Assembly: GCA_021108075.1 (NCBI GenBank)
Contig: JAIORP010000150.1
Span: forward strand, 3,396-67,395
From: Candidatus Omnitrophota bacterium
Lineage (GTDB): Bacteria > Omnitrophota > Gorgyraeia > Zapsychrales > Zapsychraceae
Reading direction: 5' to 3'
Length of the DNA: 64,000 bases
Below are positions 23,475-64,000 of the stretch, one piece after another. Made by a program: the position numbers and the translations under genes. Position 1 is the first letter of the stretch, and each line of letters starts with the position of its first letter. Under the pieces are notes generated by a model that did not search any database, was not told the origin of the DNA, and saw only the letters and a list, made by a program, of their open reading frames with translations.

Positions 23475-23517
23475 ATCCTGTCACAATTTATAAAAAAATA
23501 AAAATAATAGCACTCTT

Positions 23518-35067: not shown

Positions 35068-35106
35068 TTTGGACTTAATACAATACTTCCCTTGTCAAGA
35101 CCAAAG

Positions 35107-36196: not shown

Positions 36197-36504
36197 TTTT
36201 TCAACGATAGAATCATGCCTTCTCTTATATTAACTAAATGTGAACAAATCTTTGGTTGCCAAATTGGAAAGAAATTTTCGTTTTATTATTAATATAACTA
36301 AAAATATACATATTACTAAATTAATATACATGATTATCAACAACAACAAATGTATAAAAAAATAGACACACCGTTGGGGTGGGTTGTCCTAGTATGTCCT
36401 GGGTTGGGAGGGGTATAAAAGCGTTTTTAAAAAACGTATATTACTAATGTGTTATTCCTCAATGGTTTAAGATGTTGTGAAAAAAGTTCGCCTTTTTGGC
36501 GGTT

Positions 36505-37519: not shown

Positions 37520-38365
37520 ATGAAAAAATTGCTGATTACAGCTATTATTCTGACCTTTGGCATCGTACCATCAGCACACGCTTTTTCTTTAGGCGGGTAC
37601 ACAGGCTCAGTTACGTTTGACTTTATAAACTACGATGTAGGTACTACTTACAATGCAAATACAAACATCGTTAACGGAGCTGACGGTCAGGGTGACAGTT
37701 ACGGTATTATAAAGAATTTTACAATTATTGATCCTAACACAGCGCAACCATTGTGGCAATCATCCGCTAATGAATCGATTGAAGGTGTGTTTTATGGTAT
37801 CGATGACAACAACGTGAGCATCAACCCTGATTATAGTGGAACAATTGATTCAATTGGTGGTTTCTTAGATCTATATCTATCGACTTCTAATTTGAATCCT
37901 GTTGGCGGTACTGCGCCTGCCGTTCCATTAGCCGACTTGAATAATCCATATGCCGCGGGTACAGATCCATGGAATGCCAGTGACGGAACGCTTTTCTTAA
38001 GATTAGCATTCGTTCCCGGCGCTTCAATCGTTGATCCAACATCAACATATCATCAAACTATTGATTCTATGGCGAATCCTGTTCGTGGTGAAGGTAGTGG
38101 TTATTTAATGGTTGTTGGTGGTCAATATGCTTCAATGTTTGATTCAAACCAATTTGATAGCTTTTCTTCTGGTGCGGATTTCTACTTCTCAAATGATTTT
38201 GACGCGAGAGGATTAACACCGGCACAAATTGCAGCAGGTTGGTTAGTTTTTAGTGATGGTAAAGCATTAGGTTATGCTGTTCCAGAACCAGCTACTATGG
38301 CTCTTTTGGGTAGTGGTTTATTCGGTTTAGTTGGTGCTGCCATTAGAAAGAAAAAATTAGCTTAA
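37520..38365 (+). CDS. PEP-CTERM sorting-domain protein (secreted exosortase substrate)
   Basis: Signal peptide. A Gly/Asn/Ser/Thr-rich body. The C-terminal sequence VPEPATMALLGSGLFGLVGAAIRKKKLA is a canonical PEP-CTERM. A strong RBS AAAGGAGGG precedes the gene. Confidence 0.85.
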   Translation: MKKLLITAIILTFGIVPSAHAFSLGGYTGSVTFDFINYDVGTTYNANTNIVNGADGQGDSYGIIKNFTIIDPNTAQPLWQSSANESIEGVFYGIDDNNVSINPDYSGTIDSIGGFLDLYLSTSNLNPVGGTAPAVPLADLNNPYAAGTDPWNASDGTLFLRLAFVPGASIVDPTSTYHQTIDSMANPVRGEGSGYLMVVGGQYASMFDSNQFDSFSSGADFYFSNDFDARGLTPAQIAAGWLVFSDGKALGYAVPEPATMALLGSGLFGLVGAAIRKKKLA

Positions 38366-40628: not shown

Positions 40629-40772
40629 ATACCAATTCCATTAAATAATTGCCAAAAAATTCTCATCGGTTTTTGCGAATGCTTTTACGCAAATAGCGAG
40701 GAGAAATCAGAAGAATTATTTATTGGATTTGGTCTCGCTATTTGTTCAATTATTTAACGCAATTGGTATTAT
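40629..40772. repeat. MITE family A copy, 144 bp, full TIR pair. It ends 3 bp before the acyltransferase ATG.
   Basis: Left TIR ATACCAATTCCATTAAATAATTG at 40629-40651. Right TIR CAATTATTTAACGCAATTGGTATTAT at 40747-40772. Confidence 0.6.
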
Positions 40773-40774
40773 CT

Positions 40775-41458
40775 ATGGAAACATTCACATTTCAGAAAGT
40801 TGATTTTGACGATAAAGAGTTGATGCAGCAAATATACCAGTTGCGTTTTCGGGTGTATTGCTATGAATGTGGCTTTATTAACGAAGCGGATTATCCTGAT
40901 CAAATTGAACGTGATGAATACGACCCGCAATCCGTGCATTTTGCCGCATTGAATGAACATCAAGAAGTGATTGGAACGATGCGTCTTATTTTAAATGGCG
41001 ATCTGTTCATGCCATTGGAACATCATTGCAAAGATATCCGTATTGATCAAGGTGATGTCCCCCGCGATAAAATAGCCGAGATCTCACGCCTGGTCATCAG
41101 CAAGGACTTAAGAAGACGTAAAAAGGATGAGCTTTATTATGAGCCGCAAGTCTCAGATGAATCGGTCAAGAACAAGGAAAACCATGTTTTTTTACGACGA
41201 GCGAAGCCGATGGCCTTTGGTCTCTATCGTGAAGTTTACCGTGAAAGCTTAATGCGGGATATTATTCATTGGTATGCCTTAATGGAAAAAAGTTTGTGGC
41301 TACTGCTGCATATTCATGGCTTTACGTTTGACGCTGTTGGCGCAGAAGTCGATGTGTATGGTCCTGTTAAGCCTTACTTGGGGCGTGTTGATAAAATAAA
41401 AGAAGAGGTTAAGAAGAAGTTTCCAGGATTTTTTGACTACTTTGCTGAAGGTGCGTAG
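40775..41458 (+). CDS. PEP-CTERM/exosortase-system-associated N-acyltransferase (FeeM/autoinducer-synthase-like GNAT; N-acyl amino acid synthase family)
   Basis: METFTFQKVDFDD...LRFRVYCYECGFINE...GTMRLILNG...EISRLVISKD is the hallmark layout of the exosortase-associated acyltransferase family. I chose the ATG at 40775; the track's TTG start at 40742 lies inside the MITE. Confidence 0.65.
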   Translation: METFTFQKVDFDDKELMQQIYQLRFRVYCYECGFINEADYPDQIERDEYDPQSVHFAALNEHQEVIGTMRLILNGDLFMPLEHHCKDIRIDQGDVPRDKIAEISRLVISKDLRRRKKDELYYEPQVSDESVKNKENHVFLRRAKPMAFGLYREVYRESLMRDIIHWYALMEKSLWLLLHIHGFTFDAVGAEVDVYGPVKPYLGRVDKIKEEVKKKFPGFFDYFAEGA

Positions 41459-41508
41459 GTTTATTTTTTCGTTTTTCTCGAGGAAGAATTAAACTTGTTT
41501 GGGCAAAA

Positions 41509-44286
41509 ATGACATTCTTTAGAAGAATGCGGCCGGTTATGAAAATAGAAACGATTGTCTCCAATATTTATTCTGCCTTCACGCAAGTGGCTGGTACGTA
41601 TCCAACCACTCCAGCAATTTTGTTTAAAGACGACCATCGCTGGCAATCCATATCTTACCGGGAGCTTCATGGGCGAAGCAAAAAATTTGCGCAGTATTTA
41701 AAGAATCATTATGATATCAAGCCTGGTGATAAAGTTGGCGTCATGCTGGATAACCAATCCCAATATGCCGAGCAATTCTTTGGAACAATCGCTGCGTCCG
41801 GTGTTATTGTTGCCTTAGATGTCCAATACCCTAATCAGCAAGTCCGTGATATTTTAATGCATGCCGAGGCGAAGTTCTTAATCACTTCCTGTGACCATTA
41901 TCAGCGCGTAAGAAATGAATTGCCCCATCACCTTAAGGTGATACTTATCGATGATAAAGAGACCTGCCGTAAGGTCGCGGCTGAACCGGACAAAGACGTT
42001 TCGATGTCACATCCGGCGACGAGCACGTCATTAGCTGTTTTGTTTTATACTTCAGGGACAACGGAAGACCCGAAGGGTGTCATGTTGTCGCATGCTAATT
42101 TGCTGTCGAACATTGGGGCTATTGAAACGATAAAGATTGTCAAACACAATGATGTCGTGATTTCCATGTTGCCGCTTCATCATGCCTATGCGTTGACCAC
42201 GACGCTTTTAACTCCGCTATTGGTTGGCGCAACAGTCGCTTATCCTTCAGAAATTAATTCCGTGGAACTTCTCGCAACAATGCGGGATACACGCGCGAAT
42301 ATTTTTGTCGGAGTTCCGCAGGTTTTTTCTTTGATCTACCGCTCCGTGAATGATAAATTGGCCAAAGTTAAGGGTGCTAAAAAATTGTTGATTTCCGTAT
42401 TAGGAGGGCTGTTTTATCTTTTACGAAAATACACGGGGATTAATTTGAGCCGTTTGCTTTTTGCCGAAATGCATAAAACTTTTGGTAAAAGTTTGCGCTT
42501 CATGGTCTCCGGCGGCGCGAAGTTAGATAAGGAAGTAGGGTTAGGATTTTACCGTTGGGGATTTACTATTTTGGAAGGTTATGGTTTGACGGAAACGTCA
42601 CCCGTCGCTTCGTTTAACCTGCCGTCCAAATTTAAGATCGGTTCGGTTGGAACACCTCTGCCGAATGTGCAAATTGAGATACATCATCCGAATGAAGAGG
42701 GGATCGGCGAGGTCGCGATAAAAGGTCCGAATGTCATGCAGGGTTATTATCAAGCTGAAGAAAAAACCAAAGAGGTTATTCGGGACGGTTGGTTTTTTAG
42801 CGGAGATTTAGGCTATATTGACCAGGACGGATATGTTTTCTTAACCGGGCGGAAAAAGGAGATGATTGTATTAAGTTCAGGTAAAAATATTTATCCTGAA
42901 GAAGTGGAACACGCGTATATGAAGAGTCCGTATATTAAAGAGGTGGGCGTGCTGCAGGTCAAAGGCTCTGGCGTACTTGAGCATGTTGATCAACTTGTCG
43001 CGCTCATTGTGCCGTATGATGATTACTTTAAAGTGAAGAACGAGGGGAATTTACGTGACCGGCTTACATATGAAATTGATACGGTTTCTGCCGGTTTGCC
43101 AAGTTATAAGGCGATTAAGGGTTTTGTTGTATCCTCTGAACCTTTGCCGCGGACGCGTTTGGGTAAGTTGATGCGATATAAATTGTTTGGGGTTTATGAT
43201 AATCTTCAAAAGAAGCAACGTCCCCGGAGGGATCCAGAATCCACATCTTTAACCGGCCGTGGTGAGACTGCGGGCGCGGAATCGGCACTGGTTCAGGCTG
43301 CTTTGCTGTATTTAGAAGAAACGCTGAATAAGAAAGTTCACATGAATGATCATTTAGAATTGGATCTGGGGCTTGATTCATTAGGGCGCATCGAGATCCT
43401 TTTGGGGTTGCAGGGTAAATTGAATCTTGAGTTGGATGATGATGCGTCCATGAATTTTTACATGTGCAATACGGTCCAGGAGTTAGCGGATAAACTACAG
43501 AAGATCGTGCCGAATGGTTCCGCTGATCATGCATCAAATGATACGGATACGATTGGCCCGCAAGAGACCTGGTCGATGATGTTAACTGAAGAAGTGCCGC
43601 AAGAGATAAGGGCGCGTATTAAGTTTGAACAGAATATTTTTTCTAAGGCTTTTGCCCTCATGCTTGTTTTGCTGATTAAGTTGACGTTTAAATTGTTTTT
43701 TAGGTTGAAAGTTGAAGGCCGCGAAAATTTATCAGATGATAAACCTTTTATCATTTGTCCGAATCATTCCAGTTATTTGGATGCGTTGATCCTGATCGCC
43801 GCATTACCGTTAAAGATATTGTTTAAAACTTATTTTTTAGGTCTGAAAGAAGTACTGGATGAGATTTTTTTGGGGTCGTTCTTCACGGTGCTGCATATCA
43901 TCCCGATTGAAAGGAATTATGGGTTAGTGAATTCTTTAAAACTTTGTGCTTATGTCGTGAAGAATCAACGGTTGTTATGTTTTTTTCCTGAGGGCGAGCG
44001 TTCAGTCGATGGGGAGGTTAAGGCCTTCAAGAAAGGGATTGGTATTTTAATGCGTGAAATGTCTTCAGCGGTTGTGCCCGCGCATATTGCCGGGGCATTT
44101 GAAGCCTGGCCGAGGTATCGTAAATGGCCTCGATTTGTTCCGATTGAAATTAGATTTGGTGAAATGATTAAGCCGGATGAGATCGAGACAGCCTCGGACG
44201 AGGGTCGAGACGCTTATGACGTTATTGCTCAGCATATCCGCCTTGCCGTCATGGCATTGGCCGATGGCGGCAAGGCGAAAGCCTAA
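41509..44286 (+). CDS. Tri-domain protein: fatty acyl-AMP/CoA ligase, acyl-carrier (phosphopantetheine) domain and PlsC-type lysophospholipid acyltransferase
   Basis: AMP-binding motifs (YTSGTTEDPKG, GYGLTETS, GDLGYIDQDGY, GRKKEMI). A carrier-protein serine motif LDLGLDSLGRIE. A C-terminal LPLAT motif ICPNHSSYLDALI (HxxxxD) and FPEGERS. Confidence 0.75.
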   Translation: MTFFRRMRPVMKIETIVSNIYSAFTQVAGTYPTTPAILFKDDHRWQSISYRELHGRSKKFAQYLKNHYDIKPGDKVGVMLDNQSQYAEQFFGTIAASGVIVALDVQYPNQQVRDILMHAEAKFLITSCDHYQRVRNELPHHLKVILIDDKETCRKVAAEPDKDVSMSHPATSTSLAVLFYTSGTTEDPKGVMLSHANLLSNIGAIETIKIVKHNDVVISMLPLHHAYALTTTLLTPLLVGATVAYPSEINSVELLATMRDTRANIFVGVPQVFSLIYRSVNDKLAKVKGAKKLLISVLGGLFYLLRKYTGINLSRLLFAEMHKTFGKSLRFMVSGGAKLDKEVGLGFYRWGFTILEGYGLTETSPVASFNLPSKFKIGSVGTPLPNVQIEIHHPNEEGIGEVAIKGPNVMQGYYQAEEKTKEVIRDGWFFSGDLGYIDQDGYVFLTGRKKEMIVLSSGKNIYPEEVEHAYMKSPYIKEVGVLQVKGSGVLEHVDQLVALIVPYDDYFKVKNEGNLRDRLTYEIDTVSAGLPSYKAIKGFVVSSEPLPRTRLGKLMRYKLFGVYDNLQKKQRPRRDPESTSLTGRGETAGAESALVQAALLYLEETLNKKVHMNDHLELDLGLDSLGRIEILLGLQGKLNLELDDDASMNFYMCNTVQELADKLQKIVPNGSADHASNDTDTIGPQETWSMMLTEEVPQEIRARIKFEQNIFSKAFALMLVLLIKLTFKLFFRLKVEGRENLSDDKPFIICPNHSSYLDALILIAALPLKILFKTYFLGLKEVLDEIFLGSFFTVLHIIPIERNYGLVNSLKLCAYVVKNQRLLCFFPEGERSVDGEVKAFKKGIGILMREMSSAVVPAHIAGAFEAWPRYRKWPRFVPIEIRFGEMIKPDEIETASDEGRDAYDVIAQHIRLAVMALADGGKAKA

Positions 44287-50741: not shown

Positions 50742-50989
50742 TCGTTCGTTCTCAGAGGAATTTTTGGGGGATTCTTCAAGTTTTTTTAATAAAAATTTTC
50801 TGCCGTTCTGTCAATCCTAAATGATTGAAAAACAACATGTTGTGTCTCTATCCAATAGGACAACTCTTATCCTGTGCTTTGAGATGTTTGCTTTTTTTTT
50901 AAAAATATACAATACTATAACTATATATACTTATTATTCTATATCTATATAATTTTATTAAAATTATACATTGGTATAATTACAAAGAC

Positions 50990-51064
50990 CGATTCTGCTT
51001 TTCTCGACGCTATGGCAAGAATATCAGAATTGAAATAGAACAATTCATTAATGGATTTGGTATT
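50990..51064. repeat. MITE family A partial copy (right half with a 22-bp internal insert), ending 2 bp before the giant-gene ATG
   Basis: GATTCTGCTTTTC[TCGACGCTATGGCAAGAATATC]AGAATTGAAATAGAACAATTCATTAATGGATTTGGTATTAAAT matches 7185-7237. The insert matches, in inverse orientation, the insert in copy 60192..60298. Confidence 0.55.
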
Positions 51065-51066
51065 AA

Positions 51067-54000
51067 ATGGTGAACATGAAACGAAAAAGAATGTTTTTTG
51101 GAATGAATTGCCTGGTGCTTGCGGTTTTCATTTTTATGTCAACCCTGTCGAATTTTGTTTGCGCGCAAGGGATGTTTGTCGGCCGTCTCCCGCAACCGGG
51201 GCAGATGGTCTTTTTGAGTCCAGCGTTCAATCCTTTGGTCATCAAAGGGATCAAACTATACCCGCAAGAACCCTTGCGTTTTGATTTTATTATTGATGTT
51301 GGTGATTCGTCCACCCAGGAAGCCCCTCTGCGGGAAGCTTCTGCTAAGGCCATTAAATATTTCTTAGCGGCCCTGACGGTCCCTGAAGATGACTTATGGG
51401 TGAATCTTTCACCCTTTGAGAAAGATAGGATTATTCCAGATGATTTTGGCGTGACGGAAATGGGGCGGGACCTCTTAGCGCAGGATTACCTGTTAAAACA
51501 AATCACGGCATCCTTAATGTATCCGGAGGAAGAATTGGGCCGGAAATTCTGGGAGACGGTTTACCGGAAAGCGTATGACCAGTATGGCACAACGGATATT
51601 TTTATTGGAACATTTAACAAAGTTTGGATTTTGCCCGATCATGCGGAGGTGTTTGAGAATGGCGATTCCGCTTTAATTGTGGATTGCCGTTTGAGGGTCT
51701 TGACAGAATTTGATTATAAGGCGGAAGCCGAGCAGAGAGAAATTTCAACCCAGGATCAGAGTTTAAAAACCGATCATTTGAACAAATGGGGGCAGCGGAA
51801 TTCTTCATTAACCTCGGAAATCGTGCGAGAGATTATCATTCCGGAATTAGAAAAAGAGGTCAATGAAGGTCAGAATTTCGCAGACTTACGTCAGATTTAC
51901 CATTCCCTTATTCTTGCGACGTGGCTAAAGCAGCGTCTGAAAAATAGTGTGATGTCGAAGTTGTACATCAATCAGAACAAGACTGCGGGTGTAAACGTGG
52001 ATGATCCTGAAATTAAAGAGAAAATTTATCAGCAGTATTTAGCCGCCTACCGTAAAGGGGTTTATAACTATATCAAAGAGGATTATGATCCTTATATTCA
52101 GGATGTTGTGCCGCGGAAATATTTTTCTGGTGGAATGGATCTCGCCATGTTGGGTCAGGAAACGAATCAGATTTTGAAGATCGTTAAAAAATTGGATTGG
52201 TCCAAGCATGCCCAGCGTTTCACGAATTTGGTTATGACCGGCGTCATCTTAACCGTTGCGGGCACGTCTGCTGCTGATGTCGGCAATGTCAATCTGAATG
52301 CCATCAATCCCCCGGCCGGGATTGTCCAGCAAGGGGAACGTTTTGTTGCTGTGTCTTCTAATGTTCACTCCGATCCCTACAATGTTCCCGCCAAATGGAA
52401 ATCATTTGTCTTTGCGCCCCCATCAGGAGCAACATTAGACCTCTCGGGTTATCGGTATCTAAACGTAAGAGTTGGTGCGGGCGCGGGCAATGTGATTGTT
52501 GAATTAACGGATCTTTTGCAGGCTGAGCGGCAGCGTTTATTGGAACACAAAGGGGTCTATGACCGGAAACGGGCTTTAAGCCCGGTCTATATTGTCGGGC
52601 AAGGCGAGGATTTTATTTCGATTGATCTTGATGAAATTAAACAAAGCGACCCCCAGATTGACCTCTCAAAAATTATTCAAGTCAGCGTTAATGCCGGTGA
52701 GTATTTTTACTTTGACAAAATTAATTCTCGCGATGCGAATCTGCAGCTTTCCGGTGGTTTGTCTCTTTCTTCCACTCCGAAAATTCAGTCTAAGGCCGAA
52801 GACTTAAATGCTTTCCGTCAATTTTATGCAGCCAAACAACAAGAAAAAGAAGCCTTGAACGAGCGTTACAGAACAGAACCCCTTGTTTTACCACAAGGCG
52901 TATTAACCGGTGAGGCACAGTCTTTGCTCGGCGGGGAGTTTTCTGACCGTATTCAAGCGTTGGACAATGTCAGCGCCATTATAACAGATAAAAAGCATCC
53001 GAATTATGCCTCTGCCATCAAATTATTGCGGTACCACATGTTTAACCCTTTTCAAAACACAAATATTCGGCGGCACATTCATTACTTATTAAAAGACCGC
53101 GCTCAGGAGCAGGTCGATGAATATCTATTAGATGATTATGTCACGCATGGTTATCGTGTGACCGAACCGGTTGTTGTCCAGGTGCCGTATATCAAGACAA
53201 CACAGACAGGCACGACCTATCAATATGATGGCTGGGATGGCCAGAGTGAAAAAGCCCGCTTCACCGATAAAGGCACACAATACGGGGTTGAAGGGATTAT
53301 TACCGGTCCTGAAACGGTTGAACGTGTCTTGGATAAAAAAGTATTAGAACGTTTAGCGCATTGGTCGATCATTATGAATATTGATCCGATGACCATTACC
53401 TTTCCGACGATTTATACCGAGTCACTGCTTGGCGCCCACCCGGAGTTAACATACAATATTATGACGATCCATCAGCAGGATATTCACAGCATGCTGTCTG
53501 ACCGGGAGAAACAGTTACGGCAAGATCTTTTGGCAATGTTTGCCGAAGGTTCTTTTGATGAAAAGTTAGATGAAATTATCATCACCGGATTAATCATTAT
53601 GCAGCGCGGGTTTAACGTTTTTGCCAATTCTGACGCTGACTTGAGTAAGCGTCTTCAGGGCTATAATGGATATGGAACATATCCATGGGAACCATGGAAA
53701 GGTACCAATATGGCTAAAGAGCCTGTCATCGGCCGTCGCGCCGTCAAGGTCGGCGAGTTCATCAAGGACGGAATATTAAAGGATATTAGTGCGGCCGTCG
53801 CAAAAGAGCTGAAGATTGACCTTCCGCTTCTTCCTCATAATTTACAAGGGGTCCGGATCGGGATTTCCCATGTCCGGCAAAGTCCTGTTGTCAAGAATTT
53901 GGTCGACGAGAAAAAGATCGATCAGGCGGTTGATGCCGACATGGCCATGCTGTCTCTCCCTCAGTATTTAAATATCGGCCGTTATAAATGGGCCATGCGC

Positions 54001-57000
54001 AAATCAGGGTATAAGCAGGCGCAGGATTTGATCGAAGCCGCGCTGAACCGGGGAGATTTATTAGGGCGGACCACCGACGGGTTGAATAAAATCATGTCTA
54101 TCCCTGGAATGCCCGGGTATTCTCTGCAGGTCCCTGAGTTGTCAGAATTTGAGGAACGTTTGCAAACTGTTCAGGACCCATTTCCAAACAGAAATTTTGG
54201 CCAGGCGATTGCCCGCTATGGAAATTTTTTCATTCTGAAACGGCAAGCCGGGTTTGTCGGGGGTGTTCCTGCTTGGTCGGAGGCGACATTCGAAGAAAAG
54301 GATCGCGTCTTCGAACAATATTTAGATGCAACGGCAACCATGCCACAGACGGCCTACAATGATTTAGCTGCATCGATTCAAACCGTCGATCGTTCGGGTT
54401 TTCGTTTTGATCCGAATCCAAATAATATCCTTGTTGATCGTGCCCGGGATAAATTTAATATTGTTGATATTAAAGTGAAGAACCTGGAACACACGGCCTC
54501 TGTGGCCGAGATGATCACCGCGCTAACCGCCCTGAGATATTCTGAAGGGCCGTACAGCCGTGGCCGTGCGGAAAACGCGGGTTTGTTTAAAACAATTATG
54601 CGGCGTTCTTTTCTGGCTGCCATAGATGGGAACATTCTTTATCCTCCCACTGATCGTTATGCGACTTCGACCTTGCGTTCAGTTTTTAAGCAGGCCGGCA
54701 TTGAAAACCGTTGGGACGAGTTTCAAAGCGCGTACGCGCGGTTATATGAACGTGAGGCCGCGAAGGATGATTGGCTGGAATTGTTTAACCGTGTTTTTGG
54801 TGAGTCAATAGGTTCTCTCGTCGACCAGAATGTTTCACCGGACATCTCGCCTTATATGTTAACCCGGAAACCAGAGGGCATTGTCTTAGCTGATGATAAA
54901 AATTTGGATGAAAAATTTGCGCGATACATTGAACGCGATCAGGTGTTAAGCCAATATGCACATTTAGCGCAGTTATTTTTACAGGATACCGATGAGATGC
55001 GCAGGATTAAGGCGGCGCTATTAACCAATCCGCATTGGCGGCCCGTATTCATGCAGGCTTTACCCTCCCAGGCGACCAGTGAGATTATCCCATTGAACCG
55101 GTTTGATTCCATCCGTGATTTAGGTGGAATGGAATTATTGGAATCGCACCGGGTGTTTTCTTTTGGTCAATCGCAGGTGAGCCTGGAGTTCGCGGACGCC
55201 AGGTCCCGGACTTATCTCGAACAACAAGAAGCAGGGATGAATGATTCGGACCTTGTTGAGAATGAATTTAAGATAATCGTTGGATTAGCCGACCGGTACT
55301 CCGAGAAGACACTCGATTTTTATAAAGTGGCACATGGCCGCCGGGTGTTCTTTCCGTTAGCGGATGGTTTCTTTTTAAGCCTGAAGGGCATAGGGCAACT
55401 GGTCCAGAGAGAGCAGTCGCCCTATTTTTATGATCAAAAGACGGATTCTTTAAGGGGGCTTGCCATTGAGGCCGTCCTTCCTCAGTATTTGAAGTCTGCC
55501 GACCTGCAAGATATCAGCCTGTATCCGGAGTCGTTGGCATATATGTATGTCTACCGGGTCCCAAATGGTCAAGGGGCATTAGAATCCTTTGAGGCCATGA
55601 CACCCCAACGCAGCGATCTTCAACAAAGTCTGGTCTATTTTGAAAAAACCATTCATCCGGACCGTTTATTGAAATTGTCCCAAATGGGGGATCATGATCC
55701 GGACCTGCAAAAGATCGCCTGGCAAATATCACAAAACCTGATACAAAGCGGTCATTTGTCAAAAGACACCTTATTGACACCCCGGCAGCTGTTTTCGCAA
55801 ATTTTTGAAAATATGTTTAGGCGCTTGGCTTTAGATCAAAATGCGGGGATCTCGTATGCCGTTGTGCATGCCCAGGATATTACCTTCACAGGTTCTTTTG
55901 AGGATAAAGAAGAACGTCAGCCGATTAACCATTTAGGCGGGGCAGCCGTGCTTCCGGTTATGGAGAGAGTCGTTAAAGAAAAGAATATTTTTGAGAATTT
56001 TGACAGTCAAATGAAGATTTTTCTCCAGGTCGCATCATATTTAGGAACTGAGCGACCGGGTCTGGTTACGGATTTTGACGCGTTTCTTAAAGGCGCGCTT
56101 GAAATATATTTCACGACGGTTAATGACGGTATTTTATCCTTCTGGGTTAGAGAGTCGTCAGGGGAATTCTCCCGGGCTTTACCGGGCATCGCCCGGCGGT
56201 TTGAAGACGACCCGTTGCCGGGCTTATTTAATGTTTCCCGTGTTGAGCAGATGGAACAAAGATTGAAAAGCATGGTCATGGCGGAGTGGGTCCGCCGTCT
56301 GGACGCGATGCCTGAAATGGTGACTGATCAGGAGGTGATGCTGACAGGTGGATTCACAGATTTATTAGAATTTGATCCTCAAAATATTTCAACGGTTCAA
56401 ATGAATGGACGAACAAAGGTGTCCTCCTCATTGACCCCGGACGCATTATCACAAGCACTGCGGGCCCCATATTATCAGGTTGAGCGAAACATTCAAGATA
56501 ACATTATCCTTGGACGCGTTACGTCTCCCGCTGATCTGGGCTGGGGATTTTTTAACACGTCCATAAGGGATTTTAGTGAAAGCATTGATGTTGACGTCAT
56601 GGCCGGAGTGCTGTCGTATATTAGTAAAGTCCGAAAAGATGTGGCGCCGGATGAAGAGATTGTTATTGTCGATTGGGGCACGGGCGAAGGGAATGTGCTC
56701 AATGATGTCGCGGCAGAACTGGAAGCGCGGGGCATGACAAATGTCAGACTGATCGGGTTTGCCAATGTCCTGTCGCAACAATGGGGCAGGGCCCACTCGA
56801 ACGTGGAATTTATCTTCGATGACGGACGAAATTTTTTTCACCATTTCAAAGACACAAAAGTTGACATCATGTTGAGCAACATGGGGCTTGTTCATCTGCA
56901 GAATGATTTTGTGCCGTTTTTATTTGAAACGAGAAACCTGATGAAACCCGGGGGGATCATTATCGCCGATAGTGCCGTGGTAGCTAAAGATGATACTTTT

Positions 57001-60000
57001 GAGGAGTTATTTGGCTTGTTTTTTAATTTGATCAAGAATGAACGGGTCTCTGAGGGAACGACCACTTTAGTCTTGCAGAAAGTTATACCGGCGGATAATA
57101 CACAGCAGCCATCCATGCCGGCCATCAAAGAAGAGCCCTGGTTGCTCAATCAGTTCAGTGATCATGGTCGATTATCTTTTCAAGATGCCCAAGAACAATT
57201 GCGGCAATTTGTCGCGTCATCTTTAGCCGGTCCTTACATAGCCGCTTTTCGAAATGACAGCCGTGTGTGGGCGGATCAGAAAGTCGTGGCCCTGCTGAGG
57301 GAGCTGCATGGCCAGGGCCCGGATTATATGATACAAACTCCAATACAGTCTTATCGTAAGGGTGATCTGACAGAACAAACCGGTTTTGATTTGTTGTCGC
57401 TTTCAACTCCTGAGAGGCAAGAAGTTTTTATCGACATCATTGATCAACGTTTAGGTGTTGGCCCGGCTACGCTTGACCGTGCCATGCTTCATCGGCAGCG
57501 GGAGGATTTGCGTTTTCACGCGGATACGATTACGAATGTTCTTTTAGAGGGTCATGTCAAAGTGTCGACGACAGTTATTGAAGAAGATATGGCCAGGGTG
57601 TTAAGGCATCCTTACTATCTGATGGAACACAACGAAGACACCGGCGAGATCAAAGGGCGCTTTACGTCACCCCAATATGAAAATTATAGTTTTTTTGAAA
57701 CGGATATCGGAACGATTTCTCATCGGTTTGATGTGGATGTGATCGAGGGTGTCATGAGTTACATCGATATGGTCCGTAGCAATATCGGTTCTGAGCGGGA
57801 GATTGTCATTCTTGATTGGGGCGCTGGCGAGGGAGAAATGCTGAATCATTTAGCCGGATTGATCGAAGATGAGGGCATACGAAATGTTAAGTTGATCGGA
57901 TTTGCGAATATTTTCAGTCAAGATTGGGCCCGGGTGCATCCGAATGTTGAATTCATTTTTGATGACGCGCAGAATTTGTTTAAACATTTTAAAGACCGTA
58001 AAATTGATATGGTATTCAGCCATATGGGAATGACGCATGTTAATCCGACCGCGATGGCGGATTACCTGCACGGGATGGGCGATATCATGCAGCCCGGAGG
58101 GCTGCTGGTGATGGATTATTCCCGTCGGATTCATTGGCGGACGATCGCAAAAGGTATCTTGCCCGCCACGTTACAGTCCTTGCGCAATGAGCGGGTGAGT
58201 TGGTTGGATTCTGTGCTGGTCGCCCAGCGCGTGATCTCGGACGATGCCCCCCAAAGCGAGAATATGAAGAGCCTGCGGAAGCAGCCATGGCTTTATCATG
58301 AGTTGAGTTTTGAGGACATAATGTCCTATGCGGAAGCTGAAGCGCAAATTTCTGAATATCTTAAAACGCCTGATTCGCAACCCCTTCAAGATGTATTTAA
58401 GAGCATACTAGACAGTTTGACCATTGATATTGCGATTGGTTTGATAAGGGAGTTGGATGGTAAAGACGCCCGCTATATGTTCGATACCCCGGAAGATAGT
58501 TACGCGAAATCCCGACTTACGGATCAAAGAGATATGCGTTCATCTCAAATGAATGCCCCGGGCGCGCATGAATTGTTCGCCCTGGCTGTTAAAGAACGAA
58601 GTGAAGATTCTGATCACTATCTTGACTTAGCGATGATGCCCACCGATAAAGCCAAGATCATTCTGCGCGTTAGAGACTTTGCGCGGGAAGTGGATTATCT
58701 TGATGAATTAAAAGACCGATTTGATTTTAGCCAGGTTGATCGAAGCGATGTGAGGTTGAATAAACCCGATCAGCTGATGCGGGATTTGAATGCCTTTATT
58801 AAGCGTCAAGCGCGGGCACACCGTCAGATTTATTCCATGATGCAGGATATGGTTATCGCTGAAATGGAGCCGTTTCTTTATGACCGGAAGGATAACCCTG
58901 ATGGTGTCACGCGTGCAGCATTAGGCGAAGAACTGGATATTCATCCATCATCTATTTATTCCATCATGAATCGAAAATTTGTGCCATCAGCTGAATTGCT
59001 CGGTAAGCTGGGGAACGAGTTGGGTTTCTCGACGGTTTCTATATCTGAATTACGGGTCCGTTTAAGAAGTTTAGAGATGATGATGAAAGATGCGACAAGG
59101 CTTCAGGGCCTGGTCCTCAATCTTGTGCGTGACATGTATGGCTTCCGGTCGTTCTCGCAAATGTCACAAGCGATCAATGACATTCGACAAACGAAAGGTA
59201 AGTCAGCGATTAATCGTGGCACGATGGCCCGAATGGCCGGTGGAACGTATCGTGTCAGCCAGGACATGTTAGGGAGTTTGTCTCAGGATATAGGGGAATA
59301 TGTGGCCGGCCAATCTTTGGATGAAGAGAATGTTTTTGTTGTCCGCTCGCAGTATTCACAACTGCTTAAAAGATGGGCTGTCCAGGATGAGATTGGGAAA
59401 TTGATCCGCCGGTCGCGGGAAAGGCAGAATATCATTCAAGAAGACATGGCGAACCGTCTGGGAATATCTGTGCCGCAATACCGGGGTTTTGAGACGGGGA
59501 TGCAACCCATTTCGCAACAGTACCTGGATATTTTGTATGAGGAACTGCATGCCCATGAGAATGGATTGGCGGATAGGATTTCTGCCTGGAAACAAGAAAT
59601 AGAGGATCAGGAATTGATTTTTATTCAAGCTCAAGAGAAGGCCTCGGCAAATTTAGGGCCAACCCGTCGATCGAAAAATGTTTCTCAAGAGCAGCTTTAT
59701 CAGCGTACGGGTATTTCTGATGCAAAGATTCGGTTGATTGAGAACGGTTCCGAAACGATGGATCCGTATCAAACGTTCGCCTTTGCCAGGGGACTTAGCG
59801 TAACGCCAGCACGACTATGGCCTGAAGAAGACCTGATCCAGGTCGCATTTGACCAGGCCTCGTTAACACGGCCTGACATCGCCACGGATAACCTTGGTGG
59901 TATTGATTTCAGGCCGGAACAATTGAATATTGAAACAAAGGGCGAGGTTTTCGATTTTGAACCGAACGCGATTATCGGTGATGTTGAAAATTTTACCGGG

Positions 60001-60099
60001 TTTACTCCCATCATCATGCAGATTACTCCCATTACGAATTTACCGCTTATCCTTGGCGCGAAAGACGTGATTCAAGAGGACGGTTTGTCTTCATCTTAA
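51067..60099 (+). CDS. Giant 3010-aa signal-anchored multidomain protein of unknown function, with a kinase-like motif, two methyltransferase-like modules and four XRE-type HTH repeats
   Basis: Uninterrupted ORF. N-terminus KRKRMFFGMNCLVLAVFIFMSTLSNFVCAQG is a signal or signal-anchor. FRFDPNPNNILVD...NIVDIK at about aa 1112 resembles a kinase HxDxxxxN..D(F/I)G core. Two repeated roughly 380-aa modules each carry SAM-MTase motifs (IVIVDWGTGEG, IVILDWGAGEG, post-motif II LMKPGGIII and IMQPGGLLV). The C-terminal 400 aa hold four XRE-like HTH units. Confidence 0.7.
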   Translation: MVNMKRKRMFFGMNCLVLAVFIFMSTLSNFVCAQGMFVGRLPQPGQMVFLSPAFNPLVIKGIKLYPQEPLRFDFIIDVGDSSTQEAPLREASAKAIKYFLAALTVPEDDLWVNLSPFEKDRIIPDDFGVTEMGRDLLAQDYLLKQITASLMYPEEELGRKFWETVYRKAYDQYGTTDIFIGTFNKVWILPDHAEVFENGDSALIVDCRLRVLTEFDYKAEAEQREISTQDQSLKTDHLNKWGQRNSSLTSEIVREIIIPELEKEVNEGQNFADLRQIYHSLILATWLKQRLKNSVMSKLYINQNKTAGVNVDDPEIKEKIYQQYLAAYRKGVYNYIKEDYDPYIQDVVPRKYFSGGMDLAMLGQETNQILKIVKKLDWSKHAQRFTNLVMTGVILTVAGTSAADVGNVNLNAINPPAGIVQQGERFVAVSSNVHSDPYNVPAKWKSFVFAPPSGATLDLSGYRYLNVRVGAGAGNVIVELTDLLQAERQRLLEHKGVYDRKRALSPVYIVGQGEDFISIDLDEIKQSDPQIDLSKIIQVSVNAGEYFYFDKINSRDANLQLSGGLSLSSTPKIQSKAEDLNAFRQFYAAKQQEKEALNERYRTEPLVLPQGVLTGEAQSLLGGEFSDRIQALDNVSAIITDKKHPNYASAIKLLRYHMFNPFQNTNIRRHIHYLLKDRAQEQVDEYLLDDYVTHGYRVTEPVVVQVPYIKTTQTGTTYQYDGWDGQSEKARFTDKGTQYGVEGIITGPETVERVLDKKVLERLAHWSIIMNIDPMTITFPTIYTESLLGAHPELTYNIMTIHQQDIHSMLSDREKQLRQDLLAMFAEGSFDEKLDEIIITGLIIMQRGFNVFANSDADLSKRLQGYNGYGTYPWEPWKGTNMAKEPVIGRRAVKVGEFIKDGILKDISAAVAKELKIDLPLLPHNLQGVRIGISHVRQSPVVKNLVDEKKIDQAVDADMAMLSLPQYLNIGRYKWAMRKSGYKQAQDLIEAALNRGDLLGRTTDGLNKIMSIPGMPGYSLQVPELSEFEERLQTVQDPFPNRNFGQAIARYGNFFILKRQAGFVGGVPAWSEATFEEKDRVFEQYLDATATMPQTAYNDLAASIQTVDRSGFRFDPNPNNILVDRARDKFNIVDIKVKNLEHTASVAEMITALTALRYSEGPYSRGRAENAGLFKTIMRRSFLAAIDGNILYPPTDRYATSTLRSVFKQAGIENRWDEFQSAYARLYEREAAKDDWLELFNRVFGESIGSLVDQNVSPDISPYMLTRKPEGIVLADDKNLDEKFARYIERDQVLSQYAHLAQLFLQDTDEMRRIKAALLTNPHWRPVFMQALPSQATSEIIPLNRFDSIRDLGGMELLESHRVFSFGQSQVSLEFADARSRTYLEQQEAGMNDSDLVENEFKIIVGLADRYSEKTLDFYKVAHGRRVFFPLADGFFLSLKGIGQLVQREQSPYFYDQKTDSLRGLAIEAVLPQYLKSADLQDISLYPESLAYMYVYRVPNGQGALESFEAMTPQRSDLQQSLVYFEKTIHPDRLLKLSQMGDHDPDLQKIAWQISQNLIQSGHLSKDTLLTPRQLFSQIFENMFRRLALDQNAGISYAVVHAQDITFTGSFEDKEERQPINHLGGAAVLPVMERVVKEKNIFENFDSQMKIFLQVASYLGTERPGLVTDFDAFLKGALEIYFTTVNDGILSFWVRESSGEFSRALPGIARRFEDDPLPGLFNVSRVEQMEQRLKSMVMAEWVRRLDAMPEMVTDQEVMLTGGFTDLLEFDPQNISTVQMNGRTKVSSSLTPDALSQALRAPYYQVERNIQDNIILGRVTSPADLGWGFFNTSIRDFSESIDVDVMAGVLSYISKVRKDVAPDEEIVIVDWGTGEGNVLNDVAAELEARGMTNVRLIGFANVLSQQWGRAHSNVEFIFDDGRNFFHHFKDTKVDIMLSNMGLVHLQNDFVPFLFETRNLMKPGGIIIADSAVVAKDDTFEELFGLFFNLIKNERVSEGTTTLVLQKVIPADNTQQPSMPAIKEEPWLLNQFSDHGRLSFQDAQEQLRQFVASSLAGPYIAAFRNDSRVWADQKVVALLRELHGQGPDYMIQTPIQSYRKGDLTEQTGFDLLSLSTPERQEVFIDIIDQRLGVGPATLDRAMLHRQREDLRFHADTITNVLLEGHVKVSTTVIEEDMARVLRHPYYLMEHNEDTGEIKGRFTSPQYENYSFFETDIGTISHRFDVDVIEGVMSYIDMVRSNIGSEREIVILDWGAGEGEMLNHLAGLIEDEGIRNVKLIGFANIFSQDWARVHPNVEFIFDDAQNLFKHFKDRKIDMVFSHMGMTHVNPTAMADYLHGMGDIMQPGGLLVMDYSRRIHWRTIAKGILPATLQSLRNERVSWLDSVLVAQRVISDDAPQSENMKSLRKQPWLYHELSFEDIMSYAEAEAQISEYLKTPDSQPLQDVFKSILDSLTIDIAIGLIRELDGKDARYMFDTPEDSYAKSRLTDQRDMRSSQMNAPGAHELFALAVKERSEDSDHYLDLAMMPTDKAKIILRVRDFAREVDYLDELKDRFDFSQVDRSDVRLNKPDQLMRDLNAFIKRQARAHRQIYSMMQDMVIAEMEPFLYDRKDNPDGVTRAALGEELDIHPSSIYSIMNRKFVPSAELLGKLGNELGFSTVSISELRVRLRSLEMMMKDATRLQGLVLNLVRDMYGFRSFSQMSQAINDIRQTKGKSAINRGTMARMAGGTYRVSQDMLGSLSQDIGEYVAGQSLDEENVFVVRSQYSQLLKRWAVQDEIGKLIRRSRERQNIIQEDMANRLGISVPQYRGFETGMQPISQQYLDILYEELHAHENGLADRISAWKQEIEDQELIFIQAQEKASANLGPTRRSKNVSQEQLYQRTGISDAKIRLIENGSETMDPYQTFAFARGLSVTPARLWPEEDLIQVAFDQASLTRPDIATDNLGGIDFRPEQLNIETKGEVFDFEPNAIIGDVENFTGFTPIIMQITPITNLPLILGAKDVIQEDGLSSS

Positions 60100-61523: not shown

Positions 61524-61555
61524 TTTTATTCATGTGTTTGATATAGAAAGAAACC

Positions 61556-64000
61556 GATGAATCAATTTTTTCTTTTGTTAAAAAATAGACATTTGAACGT
61601 TATCGTGCTAGGAGCCATGATCTGTATATATCCGAGCGCGGGCAACGTTGAGGCGGCAAAGGATATTCAGGGTTACCGGATTTTTTCCAGTCCTTCTTCA
61701 GACCCCCAGGTGTATGATCAAGACATCCGCATCGCTAAACGAATACTGCGGGAAGCTGAAAAGAATTTTTTTGATGACATTCGAATTGCTCCAGCCATGA
61801 TTAATTTGGCCCTTTTGTATGAAAAAGGCGGCCATATCGAATTAGCATTACCCCATTATGAGAATGCCCTAACAATTTTAGAAAATCAAGAAGGGTATAA
61901 AAGCCCTCAAGTCCTTGATTTGTCGGACCGCGTTGCCCGCATTTATAAGATGATGGGGCGGATTGCCCAGGCCATGAAATTGTCCTATGACATGCAGTAT
62001 GAATACGAACAAGATTTGGCATTGGCCCAGGAAATATTAGTCAAACAAGAAAAGAATTTAGGCGTGGAGCACCATAAGGTTGTTCGCCTGTTTGAGCTTG
62101 TTGGTTCCTTTCACCGGACAACCGGAAAGGTGCAGGAAGCCATCAAATTGTATGAAAAGGTTTATCAGAGTGTGCTAAGCAAATATGGTGAAACACATCC
62201 GCGCCTGGCACTGATCGCCGAACAATTGGGTTATTTATATCGGCGGGTGGATAACTATCCCAAGGCGCGTGAGACATGGCACCAGGCCTTAAAGGTTTGG
62301 GAAAAACATTTAGGTGCAAATAGTCCTAAGGTGGCTGAGGCGTTGATAAATTTGAGCTATATATTTATTGATTTTAAACAAAATATGGTCGCGGCCGCAT
62401 TATCCCGAAAAGCCCAGGAAATTCATCGAGAAACGTTAAAGAACATTTTATCATTCGGTTCTGAGGAACAGCGTCTGGATCATATGGAAACCGTTGATCC
62501 CTATTCTTTGCCAGCGACCTTGAATGACACGCCGGCGCTTGTTCAGGCGATCTTTGATCATAAAGGCATTGTGTTAGATTCGATTATCGAAGACATTCAG
62601 CTCACACGGCAAGCCCGGGGAGAAAAAAATACCCGTTTGTTAAAAAGCCGTTCACAAAAGAAAAAGAAGCTGATGAAATTATATTGGGACTTGTCATTAG
62701 ATATGACCCGCGAAGATCGTTATAAGAAAGAACAGCGAAAGAACCGTTTGAAATATGAAATCAAGGAAATAGAGCAGCAAATGACGCAGCACATGCGCTT
62801 TGGCCAATCCCGCGGAAATTATAATGTCGATATGCAAAAGATCCAGGAAGCTCTGCCGGACGATTCCACCTTGATTGATTTTATCCGTTATAATCATTAT
62901 TTGGGCCATTATAAGTTTGAGAAACGCTATGGCGCAGTGGTGATTGGTCCAGAAGGCCCTCCCCGGTGGGTGCCTCTGGGGCAGGCTTCTGTTATCGATG
63001 CGGCAATCAAACGCTATCAGGTGGTTGTGCGCCAGGATAATTATTTCGACAATTTAACGGCTGTGTTATTGAACGGTCTATATGGAATGATTTGGGAACC
63101 ATTGGAAACGAGTTTAACCCAGAGGACCCGTCGCGTGATTATCAGTGCCGCGGGATCACTGAATTATTTGTCCTTCGCGACATTGCTAACGCCCAACGAC
63201 AGGTTTCTGGCCCAGAAATACCGTATCTATTACGTTCCCTATAGCCGGGATATCCTGAAGAAGACACCGGTTGGACAGAAAAAGGATATTTTTATTTTTG
63301 CGGACCCGGCCTTTGCCAGGGATACTGAAAGAAAGGGTGTCCCTTTTTATCCTTTGCCTGGATCAAGGGATGAAGCGCAATCCATCGATAAGATCGCCAG
63401 GAACAATCAATACGCTTCACGGTTATATCTTCAGGACCAGGCGAGTGAGGCCTCGTTAAATTCTTTAAGTTCTCCGCGCATCCTGCACCTCGCAACGCAT
63501 GGTTTTTTTCAAAAGAATGGGAACAATATCTTAAAAGGGGTTGATCGGGAAAATCTTTTTTTGCTAGATTCCGATCGGAGTGGCGCGATGCCCACATTTT
63601 TTCAATCCTTGAAAAATCCGATGCAAACCAGTGGTCTCGCTTTGGTGGGCGCGCAGGATAGTGTGGACATTATCGCTGGAGAGTCTATTCCCCTGACAGC
63701 AAATGATGGTATTGTCACAGCCGAAGAAATCAGCCTGCTGGACCTTCAGCGGACGTGGCTGGTTGTCTTATCTGTTTGCGATAGCGGTCTGGTCGATATT
63801 GTCTCCGGGGACGAGTTTATGGGATTAAGGCGGGGATTTATGCAGGCCGGAGCGCAGAACGTTATGCTGAGCCTCTGGCGCGTCGATGACCGTGTGACGC
63901 CGCGGTTTATGAAAGATTATTATGCGCGTTTGTTTAAGATGCAAAGTCCGGCCCGGTCATTGTCCTTCACCCAGCGTTCCTGGCTGGTTCAACTCCGTAA
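61556..64000 (+). CDS. TPR-repeat plus CHAT-domain (caspase-like peptidase) protein. It is 3'-partial and runs off the window, so it is absent from the ORF track.
   Basis: My own translation from the ATG at 61556 is open to 64000. It shows a signal or TM N-terminus and TPR-like repeats (ALLYEKGGHIELALPHYENAL, GYLYRRVDNYPKARETWHQALKVW). It then shows the CHAT catalytic dyad context RILHLATHGFF and VVLSVCDSGL. Confidence 0.6.

Follow-up and report, generated by a model that had tools for sequence, protein, structure and literature searches.

Contig JAIORP010000150.1 of the Candidatus Omnitrophota assembly GCA_021108075.1 (Gorgyraeia; Zapsychrales; Zapsychraceae) carries, within the 64,000-nucleotide (nt) stretch that we analysed as a whole and refer to as the window (positions 3,396 to 67,395 of the forward strand), an uninterrupted open reading frame (ORF) of 9033 nt. 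The ORF (51067..60099, +) starts with ATG and encodes a product of 3010 amino acids (aa), described in an earlier note on this DNA as a signal-anchored giant protein of unprecedented domain mix. Our computational follow-up places the protein in a very large family whose members share a signal peptide, an N-terminal head and a C-terminal tail around a changing set of middle modules. Our preferred reading, to which we give a probability of roughly one in two, is that this modular enzyme array leaves the cell through Sec and does its work at or in host or prey cells.

An intact 9-kb gene

The frame is present exactly as the earlier note had claimed, as is its disproportion to the rest of the window, where the remaining ORFs (listed from 150 aa upwards) span 150–925 aa; the chance of a stop-free run of 3010 codons at the local base composition, which the note had called negligible, is ~1e-71. 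NCBI lists the same protein under the title ‘MAG: methyltransferase domain-containing protein [Candidatus Omnitrophica bacterium]’ (MCD4781155.1), with its start annotated at the second ATG, 51076. An identical product (3010 aa, 0 differences) is encoded on the 70,981-bp contig of the NCBI metagenome-assembled genome (MAG), on NODE_125 of ENA ERZ26872899 (41,993 bp, 14x coverage; 0 differences) and on a Logan contig of run SRR15668621 (0 differences), three assemblies that may share reads. There are no tandem or direct nucleotide repeats inside the ORF, GC content is even along it, and the family head and tail described below stand at its start and its end, in the order found in 185 full-length relatives of 633–4969 aa. 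Because the three records agree and internal nucleotide repeats are lacking, an assembly artefact as the source of the frame is very unlikely. A chimeric assembly, a read-through of fused or decayed genes or a collapsed repeat, errors of the kind that the earlier note had named as its possible undoing and that the MAG origin of the sequence and the size of the gene within the window might bring to mind, is against this evidence the least probable of all the explanations considered here.

A large family with a constant head and tail

A search with the full-length protein returned at least 1,586 significant proteins. The 119 relatives listed are 1,650–5,000 aa long and cover just ~12% of the query; those with a named source are labelled Omnitrophica/Omnitrophota or Ca. 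Aceula. All 119 carry, always at the N terminus, a module corresponding to query aa ~35–385 (the N-module; Table 1), at 45–60% identity to the query and with 60+ invariant columns. A phmmer search of 1.84 billion cluster representatives with this module gave 8,025 matches at E<=1e-3 and 6,208 at E<=1e-30, and in all 150 of the matches listed the similarity begins within ~90 residues of the N terminus. The ~350-aa module has no fold or family match in Pfam or the PDB.

At the other end, the family is defined by a tail of ~60 aa with the consensus vGGIDLNPxxLxLxTxGxG...I.GFxPVIxxIxPVTNLPLLLG. A hidden Markov model (HMM) of the tail matches 118 of 120 relatives at 0–76 aa from the C terminus, with 186 terminal matches against 1 internal and 0 in neighbouring proteins or shuffled sequences. 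The query's own tail (aa 2942–2997) scores 23.3 bits with an HMM of half the tail, and its end is polar and acidic. No sorting-signal family (PEP-CTERM, the type IX secretion system (T9SS) C-terminal domain (CTD) or LPXTG) was matched by the query protein in Pfam or NCBIfam. By eye, the first half of the tail (GGIDLNP..L.L.T.G) had seemed to recur at the starts of the methyltransferase modules as an internal cassette junction, an idea that we rejected on the ratio of 186 terminal to 1 internal HMM match at score >=8. Searching a large database with the tail profile, a procedure biased toward short proteins, yielded matches that were all 34–112 aa long; of three tail-only ORFs checked on long contigs, one belonged to a split family gene, one was a fragment at the end of its contig and one was the remnant of a decayed gene, and this search, favouring short proteins as it did, gave no evidence that other protein classes use the tail. 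One such stand-alone ORF, of 79 aa, lies at 10001..10240 of locus L083 (Ca. Aceula meridiana, JAVCDE010000033.1) between era and a YjeF_N gene; it encodes little beyond a degenerate family tail (GGIDL...GFIPVIINITPIANFYSML), all frames upstream of it are closed, and it is probably what is left of a decayed family gene.

Among contigs drawn from one genome per species, we confirmed at least 575 genomic loci. The titles of the best 79 are nearly all Omnitrophota, with ~28 given as ‘uncultured Planctomycetales’ and one as ‘bacterium’, and it is on these names and on the top protein matches that the taxonomic restriction of the family rests. Several genomes contribute 3–5 loci each within the top 80; the loci hold 59 complete head-to-tail ORFs (677–3,535 aa), and at 15 of them two or three family genes stand in tandem on the same strand. 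Full-length family proteins in the database (n=185) range from 633 to 4,969 aa. Same-strand arrays of three to four family genes within 20–40 kb occur at L045, L024, L023 and, on DATDQB010000013.1, L042/L075, which suggests that local duplication and recombination drive the shuffling of cassettes. Sequence similarity places the query in a very large paralogous family that has so far turned up in Omnitrophota-type MAGs only.

These results overturn the view that the protein stands alone with an architecture without precedent: with at least 1,586 relatives and 8,025 cluster representatives of the N-module, a unique domain mix is the rule, since the design of the family is a constant head and tail around changing domains. 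The homologs in metagenome-derived sequence that the earlier note had wished to see searched for are plentiful and mostly titled Omnitrophota. As for a match to a known family, which was to count against novelty, matches abound but the family itself is uncharacterised and we found no description of it in the open-access literature searched.

Signal peptide and cysteine exclusion

The only strongly hydrophobic segment of the query comprises aa 8–26, preceded by KRKR; it contains the only 19-mer in the protein with a Kyte–Doolittle value above 1.6, and hydropathy indicates no transmembrane (TM) helix beyond the signal peptide. The predicted junction, VCA|QG, is followed by RLPQPG. Across the family, every one of the 207 complete N termini contains a hydrophobic core; the n-region is net-basic in 198 of them, and in 168 the c-region has the form [AVS]xA. 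An A-Q pair upstream of the LPxPG motif is kept in 179 of 210 relatives, 4–10 residues before it (all within 22 aa), which implies cleavage by signal peptidase I and a mature N-terminal Gln; the query's signal peptide is thus probably removed, with Q34 as the mature start. Of the two options in the earlier note, a positive-inside signal or a signal-anchor, the former is borne out by the KRKR and the hydrophobic core, whereas in view of the A|Q junction the segment looks like a cleavable Sec signal and not an anchor.

Composition points the same way. Cysteine makes up 0.066% of residues in family proteins against 1.12% in neighbouring ORFs and 1.10% in other genes of the window, a depletion of ~17-fold, and 181 of 220 family proteins have two cysteines or fewer. 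The query has three, two of them within the signal peptide, leaving one in the ~2,975 aa of the mature protein. As a control, neighbouring ORFs with signal-peptide-like N termini have a median cysteine content of 0.16%, and those without, 1.03%; because these signal-peptide-like neighbours are cysteine-poor as well, the family shares the composition of the exported class, in an extreme form. That exported proteins tend to exclude cysteine has been described before (PMC2823432). That the query is an exported member of a modular head-and-tail family is, we consider, highly probable.

Exchangeable cargo between the constant ends

No curated family in Pfam or NCBIfam is matched over the first ~1850 residues. 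Immediately after the N-module lies cargo module A, which recurs at differing positions in relatives P0002, P0005, P0032 and P0121 and in the ORF at locus L001, and which has no PDB or Pfam profile match; its assignment as a lytic transglycosylase, prompted by ES, GLxMQ and YNGYG motifs noticed by eye, found no Pfam or PDB profile support either. Module B recurs in relatives P0092 and P0009. Among PDB profiles it comes closest, marginally in each case, to NleH1 (4lrj, E=0.0033), 4o96 and NleH2 (4lrk), which are type III effector kinases; the NleH1 alignment, obtained with a profile of 3 sequences, spans ~60 residues and brings the catalytic loop D..N and a DFG-like Asp into register. Module B is thus a marginal candidate for an NleH-like minimal kinase.

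Module C recurs in seven proteins, twice in one of them, and its invariant residues are G1424, R1425, K1440, H1601, Q1603, D1604, D1613 and E1616. Two methods matched it to SelO/YdiU, which are AMPylating/UMPylating pseudokinases, with the effector pseudokinase SidJ next, and it has no Pfam match (the SelO family included) and no PDB sequence or profile match. The structure models of the head module and of module C are both of moderate confidence, and we regard module C as a probable SelO/YdiU-like kinase-fold module. It differs from SelO in having an HxQD catalytic loop in place of SelO's own, and it is not a member of that sequence family.

The two methyltransferase modules further downstream have cores (aa 1863–1973 and 2248–2350) that match Pfam Methyltransf_31/25/11 above cut-offs, and they bear out the earlier statement that enzyme-like modules fill the middle. 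They share 37% identity over 323 aa (E=8e-79) and read as a diverged tandem duplication; a cassette of this type, ~320 aa long, is found again in at least 15 relatives. In the PDB, phosphoethanolamine N-methyltransferases come nearest, with weak matches (E=1.6e-3), and the two modules are generic class I enzymes with motif I intact. Towards the end of the protein come HTH (helix-turn-helix) units of XRE type, two strong and one marginal, with an overall HTH_3 score of 51.5 bits; a fourth unit suspected at aa 2681–2765 has no HTH match. They lie inside a 3010-aa protein with a signal peptide, unlike those of the small cytoplasmic XRE regulators. The earlier note was right to locate them near the C terminus and wrong to have the protein end in them, since it closes with the family tail.

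Relatives carry other cargo. In ~20 of 120 the middle contains a UbiB/ABC1 kinase and an M48 peptidase; further Pfam domains include HATPase_c, HEAT, SNF2 helicases, PPDK/PEP-utilisers, PGK, PGI, PFK and phosphomannomutase, and there are also Ser/Thr kinases with PP2C, NUDIX, HD, glycosyltransferases, DnaJ and RNAP alpha-CTD. XRE HTH arrays are found in other members as well (for example, P0044). Recurrence of cassettes was established by local mining of the family sequences that we had fetched; when the middle 1,320 aa of the query were searched for homologs, one match came back and even the query's own entry was missed, so that this search was uninformative. As the distribution shows, the modules between the constant ends are shuffled among paralogs.

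A short motif at module boundaries

All four DxAM sites of the query fall at module boundaries (Table 1). Across 220 family proteins we counted 414 occurrences of D.AM against 46.6 in shuffled sequences (~9-fold) and 314 of D.AM[LIMVT] against 12.1 +/- 3.6 expected, a density of 0.73 DxAM per 1000 aa compared with 0.03 in neighbouring proteins; the close variants E.AM, D.AL and D.SM are not enriched in the family. In an unbiased scan of gapped tripeptides over the cargo regions, D.AM came out as the top motif, at z=37 against 16 for the next tripeptide. One relative (P0028) has 16 DxAM sites, each in a different polar context, and in 52 of 184 proteins the motif lies 5–25 residues ahead of the tail.

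We considered whether the motif might be a nucleotide signal, either an internal Shine–Dalgarno sequence plus ATG or the scar of a gene fusion, and rejected this: Shine–Dalgarno-like sequences precede 0.08 of the sites and 0.10 of other internal Met codons. As there is no such enrichment and synonymous positions vary, selection on DxAM acts at the protein level. Its placement between cassettes would suit a processing or docking site; cleavage in particular is a tentative proposal, which we rate as possible and rather less than probable. The TPR-CHAT protease gene downstream of the giant gene was tried as a candidate processor, and was set aside when no CHAT homolog turned up near 79 other family loci or within family proteins. 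A second linker motif, SSP(V), was counted 50 times where 2.7 would be expected (z=29), often between cargo and tail and in some relatives just upstream of GGID (for example, P0008, P0019, P0024, P0025 and P0072); the query does not have the motif in this form.

Table 1 Features of the giant gene and its upstream region (window coordinates)
Feature	Position	Strand	Residues and remarks
Upstream intergenic region	50742..51066	+	325 nt, AT-rich; presumed promoter region
Sec-type signal peptide	51067..51165	+	aa 1–33, MVNMKRKRMFFGMNCLVLAVFIFMSTLSNFVCA|QG; predicted cleavage after A33 (VCA|QG)
N-terminal module, family-defining	51172..52221	+	aa ~36–385; LPxPGxMV...WVNLSPxE...FGxTEMGRDLLAQDYLLKQ...TFNKVWI...EVNEGxNF...KYFSGG
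DxAM 1	52138..52149	+	D358-L-A-M; end of N-module
Cargo module A	52222..53937	+	aa 386–957; conserved core ~420–945
DxAM 2	53938..53949	+	D958-M-A-M; module A/B boundary
Cargo module B, minimal kinase-like	53992..54576	+	aa ~976–1170; catalytic-loop-like FDPNPNNILVDRARDKFNIVDI at aa ~1112–1135
Cargo module C, kinase-like fold nearest SelO/YdiU	54889..56166	+	aa ~1275–1700
Methyltransferase module 1	56302..57366	+	aa 1746–2100; class I S-adenosylmethionine (SAM) methyltransferase core 1863–1973, motif I IVDWGTGEG
DxAM 3	57475..57486	+	D2137-R-A-M; between the two methyltransferase modules
Methyltransferase module 2	57487..58476	+	aa 2141–2470; core 2248–2350, motif I ILDWGAGEG
DxAM 4	58624..58635	+	D2520-L-A-M; between methyltransferase module 2 and HTH region
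XRE-type HTH unit 1, marginal	58903..59037	+	aa ~2613–2657; HTH_3 E=1.2e-4, 22.5 bits against a cut-off of 23
XRE-type HTH unit 2	59389..59532	+	aa 2775–2822; HTH_3 / HTH_31, local profile
XRE-type HTH unit 3	59650..59820	+	aa 2862–2918; HTH_19 / HTH_3, local profile
C-terminal tail, family-defining	59890..60096	+	aa 2942–3010; NLGGIDFRPEQLNIETKGEVFDF...FTGFTPIIMQITPITNLPLILG + 13-aa polar end ...LSSS

Genomic neighbourhood and other features of the window

Upstream of the giant gene lie genes for a GAF histidine kinase, an NtrC-type sigma-54 activator, a PocR-GAF protein and a response regulator; downstream are a GH2-like TIM-barrel protein and then the TPR-CHAT protease (caspase family, clan CD; CHAT E=1.9e-54), two genes away at 61542..64000 (+), where it leaves the window at its 3′ end. 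The full protease gene encodes 838 aa (20491..23007 of locus L080), and on the longer ENA contig it is followed by MerR, ParA-like and PilM genes. In the 325-nt region ahead of the giant gene we found no sigma-54 consensus (GG-N10-GC), despite the NtrC-type activator gene just upstream, and sigma-70-like matches there do not exceed the shuffle expectation. The same region contains a 24-nt AT-rich unit repeated 1.9 times (50915..50960; Tandem Repeats Finder score 64), which could be a regulatory or curved-DNA element.

At 79 family loci the commonest neighbours are generic two-component genes, at 11 loci or fewer. A conserved secretion-system neighbour was sought by clustering the ~1,400 neighbouring ORFs of these loci, and the clusters consist only of response regulators, PAS kinases and PHP proteins. 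With no conserved neighbour beyond two-component genes, any handling machinery would be encoded elsewhere.

Several other features of the window are recorded here in their own right. The gene at 32170..34260 (−) encodes a 696-aa protein with a TOTE conflict-system archaeo-eukaryotic primase (PF22548, E=4e-72) and a ResIII/DEAD helicase, and is likely an anti-mobile-element conflict gene. A near-consensus sigma-54 promoter, TGGCACGTTATTTGCT, is found at 36505 (+), just upstream of a Bac_transf sugar transferase gene (36559..37407) whose product has a PEP-CTERM-like motif; a PEP-CTERM protein follows at 37520..38365 (+), and these two PEP-CTERM-bearing proteins imply that the organism sorts some proteins by their C termini through an exosortase-type system, separate from the GGID tail. 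A low-GC island at ~14000..24000 (27–35% against ~40% elsewhere), with genes on the minus strand and a Polysacc_synt/MatE-type flippase at 20074..21468, is probably a horizontally acquired surface-polysaccharide cluster. At ~34000..36500 the cumulative GC skew is at its lowest, as the skew itself changes sign from minus to plus, and at exactly this place the genes, mostly on the minus strand before it, come to lie mostly on the plus strand; such a pattern is origin-like. A divergent pair of AAA_14 + DUF4143 ATPase genes occupies 2193..3431 (−) and 3540..4718 (+), and at 40742..44286 (+), upstream of the two-component genes, a FeeM-like N-acyl amino acid synthase/GNAT gene precedes one for a 925-aa protein with AMP-binding, PP-binding and acyltransferase domains, the two being predicted to form a small lipid or lipo-amino-acid biosynthesis pair.

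Proposed function and competing explanations

In the model that we favour, the signal peptide with its A|Q start, the N-module and the tail would be handles for export, envelope targeting or onward translocation, and everything between the constant ends would be exchangeable cargo built by cassette shuffling and duplication. The exported cargo would modify host or prey proteins or nucleic acids and bind DNA, at the contact zone or inside the cell, and its cassettes would be separated by processing at the DxAM boundaries or would dock there. We infer the roles of head and tail, delivery to another cell, DxAM processing and all substrates. The argument for action at or in a host or prey cell, which we rate a little short of evenly balanced, is that the protein is exported and its cargo calls for ATP, SAM or DNA, found only in cytoplasm. 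Such an effector array fits the host-dependent, predatory biology of the phylum (PMC10066038; PMC13153191): Omnitrophota are ultra-small and host-dependent (PMC10066038), and the cultured V. archaeovorus makes open cytoplasmic contact with its prey, with its RNA found inside dead prey (PMC13153191). The cell-surface or conflict role floated in the earlier note is plausible for an exported protein with enzyme and HTH modules, delivery being the conjectural part of it.

A number of points weigh against this proposal. Action in a host cytoplasm is argued indirectly, from ATP- and SAM-dependent domains being useless outside cytoplasm, and localisation is argued from sequence. The head module has no fold homolog that would hint at a function, and its structure model is of moderate confidence; module A is without an assigned identity; module B has no Pfam match, and the conserved beta3 Lys is not evident in it. 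DxAM is missing from 86 of 220 members, and no cognate protease for it was found. Secretion or translocation machinery is not consistently linked to the family genes at the 79 loci. Related giant proteins have, moreover, been interpreted as surface or inner-membrane-anchored (10.64898/2026.06.07.730766; 10.1101/2023.11.21.568195).

The main rival is the prevailing view of the phylum's giants, a tethered enzyme coat in the producer's envelope. The protein would be exported and retained on its producer as an envelope or surface coat or a periplasmic scaffold, with head and tail anchored to membrane, peptidoglycan or outer membrane; much like the giant coat protein of Velamenicoccus on a smaller scale, it would help to build a layer of enzymes tethered to the surface, serving adhesion, surface remodelling or sensing outside the host cytoplasm. 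The evidence for export applies equally here, the tail, being conserved and hydrophobic, looks like a signal for anchoring or sorting, long Omnitrophota proteins have been read as surface- or membrane-associated with roles in adhesion and cell-wall attack (PMC10066038; 10.1101/2023.11.21.568195; 10.64898/2026.06.07.730766), and the domain repertoire overlaps that of the Omnitrophota giants. Such a coat is harder to square with the cargo, because kinase-fold, SAM methyltransferase and HTH modules, and the glycolytic enzymes and SNF2 helicases of relatives, need ATP, SAM, NAD or DNA, which are not expected at the surface; nor does the query have an adhesin, lectin, dockerin or glycoside hydrolase domain in Pfam or NCBIfam, or any TM helix other than the signal peptide. 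We hold this alternative to be possible, if doubtful.

Improbable by comparison is an inner-membrane-anchored cytoplasmic regulator or enzyme, in which the N-terminal segment would stay uncleaved, the HTH units would act on the cell's own DNA and the methyltransferase and kinase modules on its own substrates. Its appeal is that the recognisable domains are all of cytoplasmic type, that the upstream two-component genes could suggest a regulatory locus and that ~46% of giant Omnitrophota proteins are predicted to have TM segments only, with a cytoplasmic bulk (10.64898/2026.06.07.730766). The KRKR before the hydrophobic core, however, puts the bulk outside by the positive-inside rule, the A-x-A|Q processing-type junction is kept across the family, a ~17-fold depletion of cysteine fits exported and not cytoplasmic proteins of the same loci, and the conserved C-terminal tail would be left without a role.

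A fused defence or restriction-modification-like enzyme, its methyltransferases modifying DNA and its XRE HTH units serving as a controller, might be read into the domain-level PADLOC matches to mad2 (a methyltransferase, E=4.5e-10) and HTH_VI (E=3.1e-9) and the TOTE conflict-system gene elsewhere in the window, but is very improbable: the matches are limited to stretches of ~65 and ~50 residues within generic domains, the methyltransferase cores belong to small-molecule or protein-type class I (Methyltransf_11/25/31) and not to DNA methyltransferase families, there is no nuclease partner and no defence partner gene nearby, family cargo is mostly unrelated to defence, and signal peptide, head, tail and cysteine exclusion would go unexplained.

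The effector-array interpretation could be extended to a phylum-wide delivery scheme, in which Sec signal, head and GGID tail would send cysteine-free polyproteins into host or prey, and cuts at DxAM would release DNA-binding modules and ATP- and SAM-dependent enzymes, by which the victim would be reprogrammed or taken apart. In this complete form we think it unlikely; were it true, the thousands of paralogs would amount to a combinatorial effector library, and the giants (10–147 thousand aa) would be the extreme of the same principle.

Significance and comparison with known systems

Omnitrophota are abundant, ultra-small and host-dependent, and discussion has so far centred on a handful of huge proteins that show little conservation, are difficult to assemble and cannot be expressed. 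The head-and-tail family offers a more tractable subject, with thousands of proteins of 0.6–5 thousand aa that share head, tail, signal peptide and composition; these features lend themselves to searches, to counts in each genome, to a look through existing proteomes and to expression of the proteins piece by piece. Should the constant ends serve as signals for export or translocation, the family would represent a new sorting system together with a catalogue of candidate effectors (SelO-like and NleH-like folds, methyltransferases, helicases and glycolytic enzymes), and if DxAM is a processing site, a bacterial polyprotein strategy. Even on the conservative reading, as an exported multi-enzyme envelope family, it fills a large block of ‘hypothetical protein’ annotation in the phylum.

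In overall plan the query resembles the MARTX toxins of Vibrio and relatives, which are secreted proteins of 3.5–5 thousand aa with constant ends and a strain-variable effector array, shuffled by recombination, from which effectors are freed by cleavage at short linkers to act in the target-cell cytoplasm. MARTX toxins lack a Sec signal and have a C-terminal type I secretion signal, glycine-rich RTX repeats and a cysteine protease domain. Constant ends and a shuffled middle are common to both, whereas RTX repeats, a cysteine protease and a type I secretion signal were not found in the query with Pfam or NCBIfam, and a Sec signal is present; the comparison is one of design, with no relationship in sequence or fold. 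Cargo proteins of the type IX system of Bacteroidota combine a Sec signal, variable domains and a C-terminal sorting domain of ~70–100 aa, and their mature proteins frequently begin with Gln (the ‘Q-rule’). Here again the design and the A|Q start are similar, but no T9SS CTD family (PF18962/TIGR04183) was matched at E<=1 in Pfam/NCBIfam, an obligatory head of ~350 aa is added in the query's family, the phylum is a different one and no T9SS genes were seen near family loci. Substrates of the PEP-CTERM/exosortase system, with a C-terminal PEP motif, a TM helix and an Arg-rich end, differ as well, in that the query has no PF07589 match and its tail ends in polar, acidic residues. Polymorphic toxins place a variable toxin at the extreme C terminus and are paired with an immunity gene. 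In the query family, by contrast, variation is confined to an internal, multi-domain part between two constant termini, most of the cargo does not resemble toxins, and the 79 loci yielded no neighbour of immunity type; what the two have in common is a lineage-expanded design with a constant trafficking part and variable domains, arrays of paralogs and a plausible role in conflict (compare the Omnitrophota giants, PMC12419801).

The closest parallels come from the same phylum. Long, exported multi-enzyme proteins of Omnitrophota have already been described, for lengths of at least 10 thousand aa or ORFs above 20 kb (10.1101/2023.11.21.568195; 10.64898/2026.06.07.730766; PMC10066038), and these giants (‘Archaeovorins’; West-Roberts et al. 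2023; Nielsen & Lui 2026; Seymour et al. 2023) contain TM helices by the tens to hundreds and, in many cases, a SecA-DEAD-like or C39 peptidase domain. Like the query family, they are single polypeptides tiled with unrelated enzyme and signalling domains (methyltransferases, HATPase_c, NUDIX, PPDK, HEAT/TPR and sugar-phosphate enzymes), mostly with a signal peptide and/or TM segments, with near-unique architectures and frequent internal duplication of domains. Archaeovorins differ from the query in running to tens of thousands of aa against 3010, and in having many TM regions and a divergent SecA DEAD-like domain, against one hydrophobic segment and no SecA, DEAD or C39 Pfam match. In the open-access texts on long Omnitrophota proteins that we read, we found no description of the N-module, the GGID tail, the cysteine exclusion or DxAM. 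The methyltransferase repertoire of the Archaeovorin type is shared, the query having two SAM methyltransferases and its relatives NUDIX, HATPase, PPDK, HEAT and glycosyltransferase domains. The head-and-tail family thus appears to be undescribed, and the query to represent a further form of the long multi-enzyme proteins of Omnitrophota.

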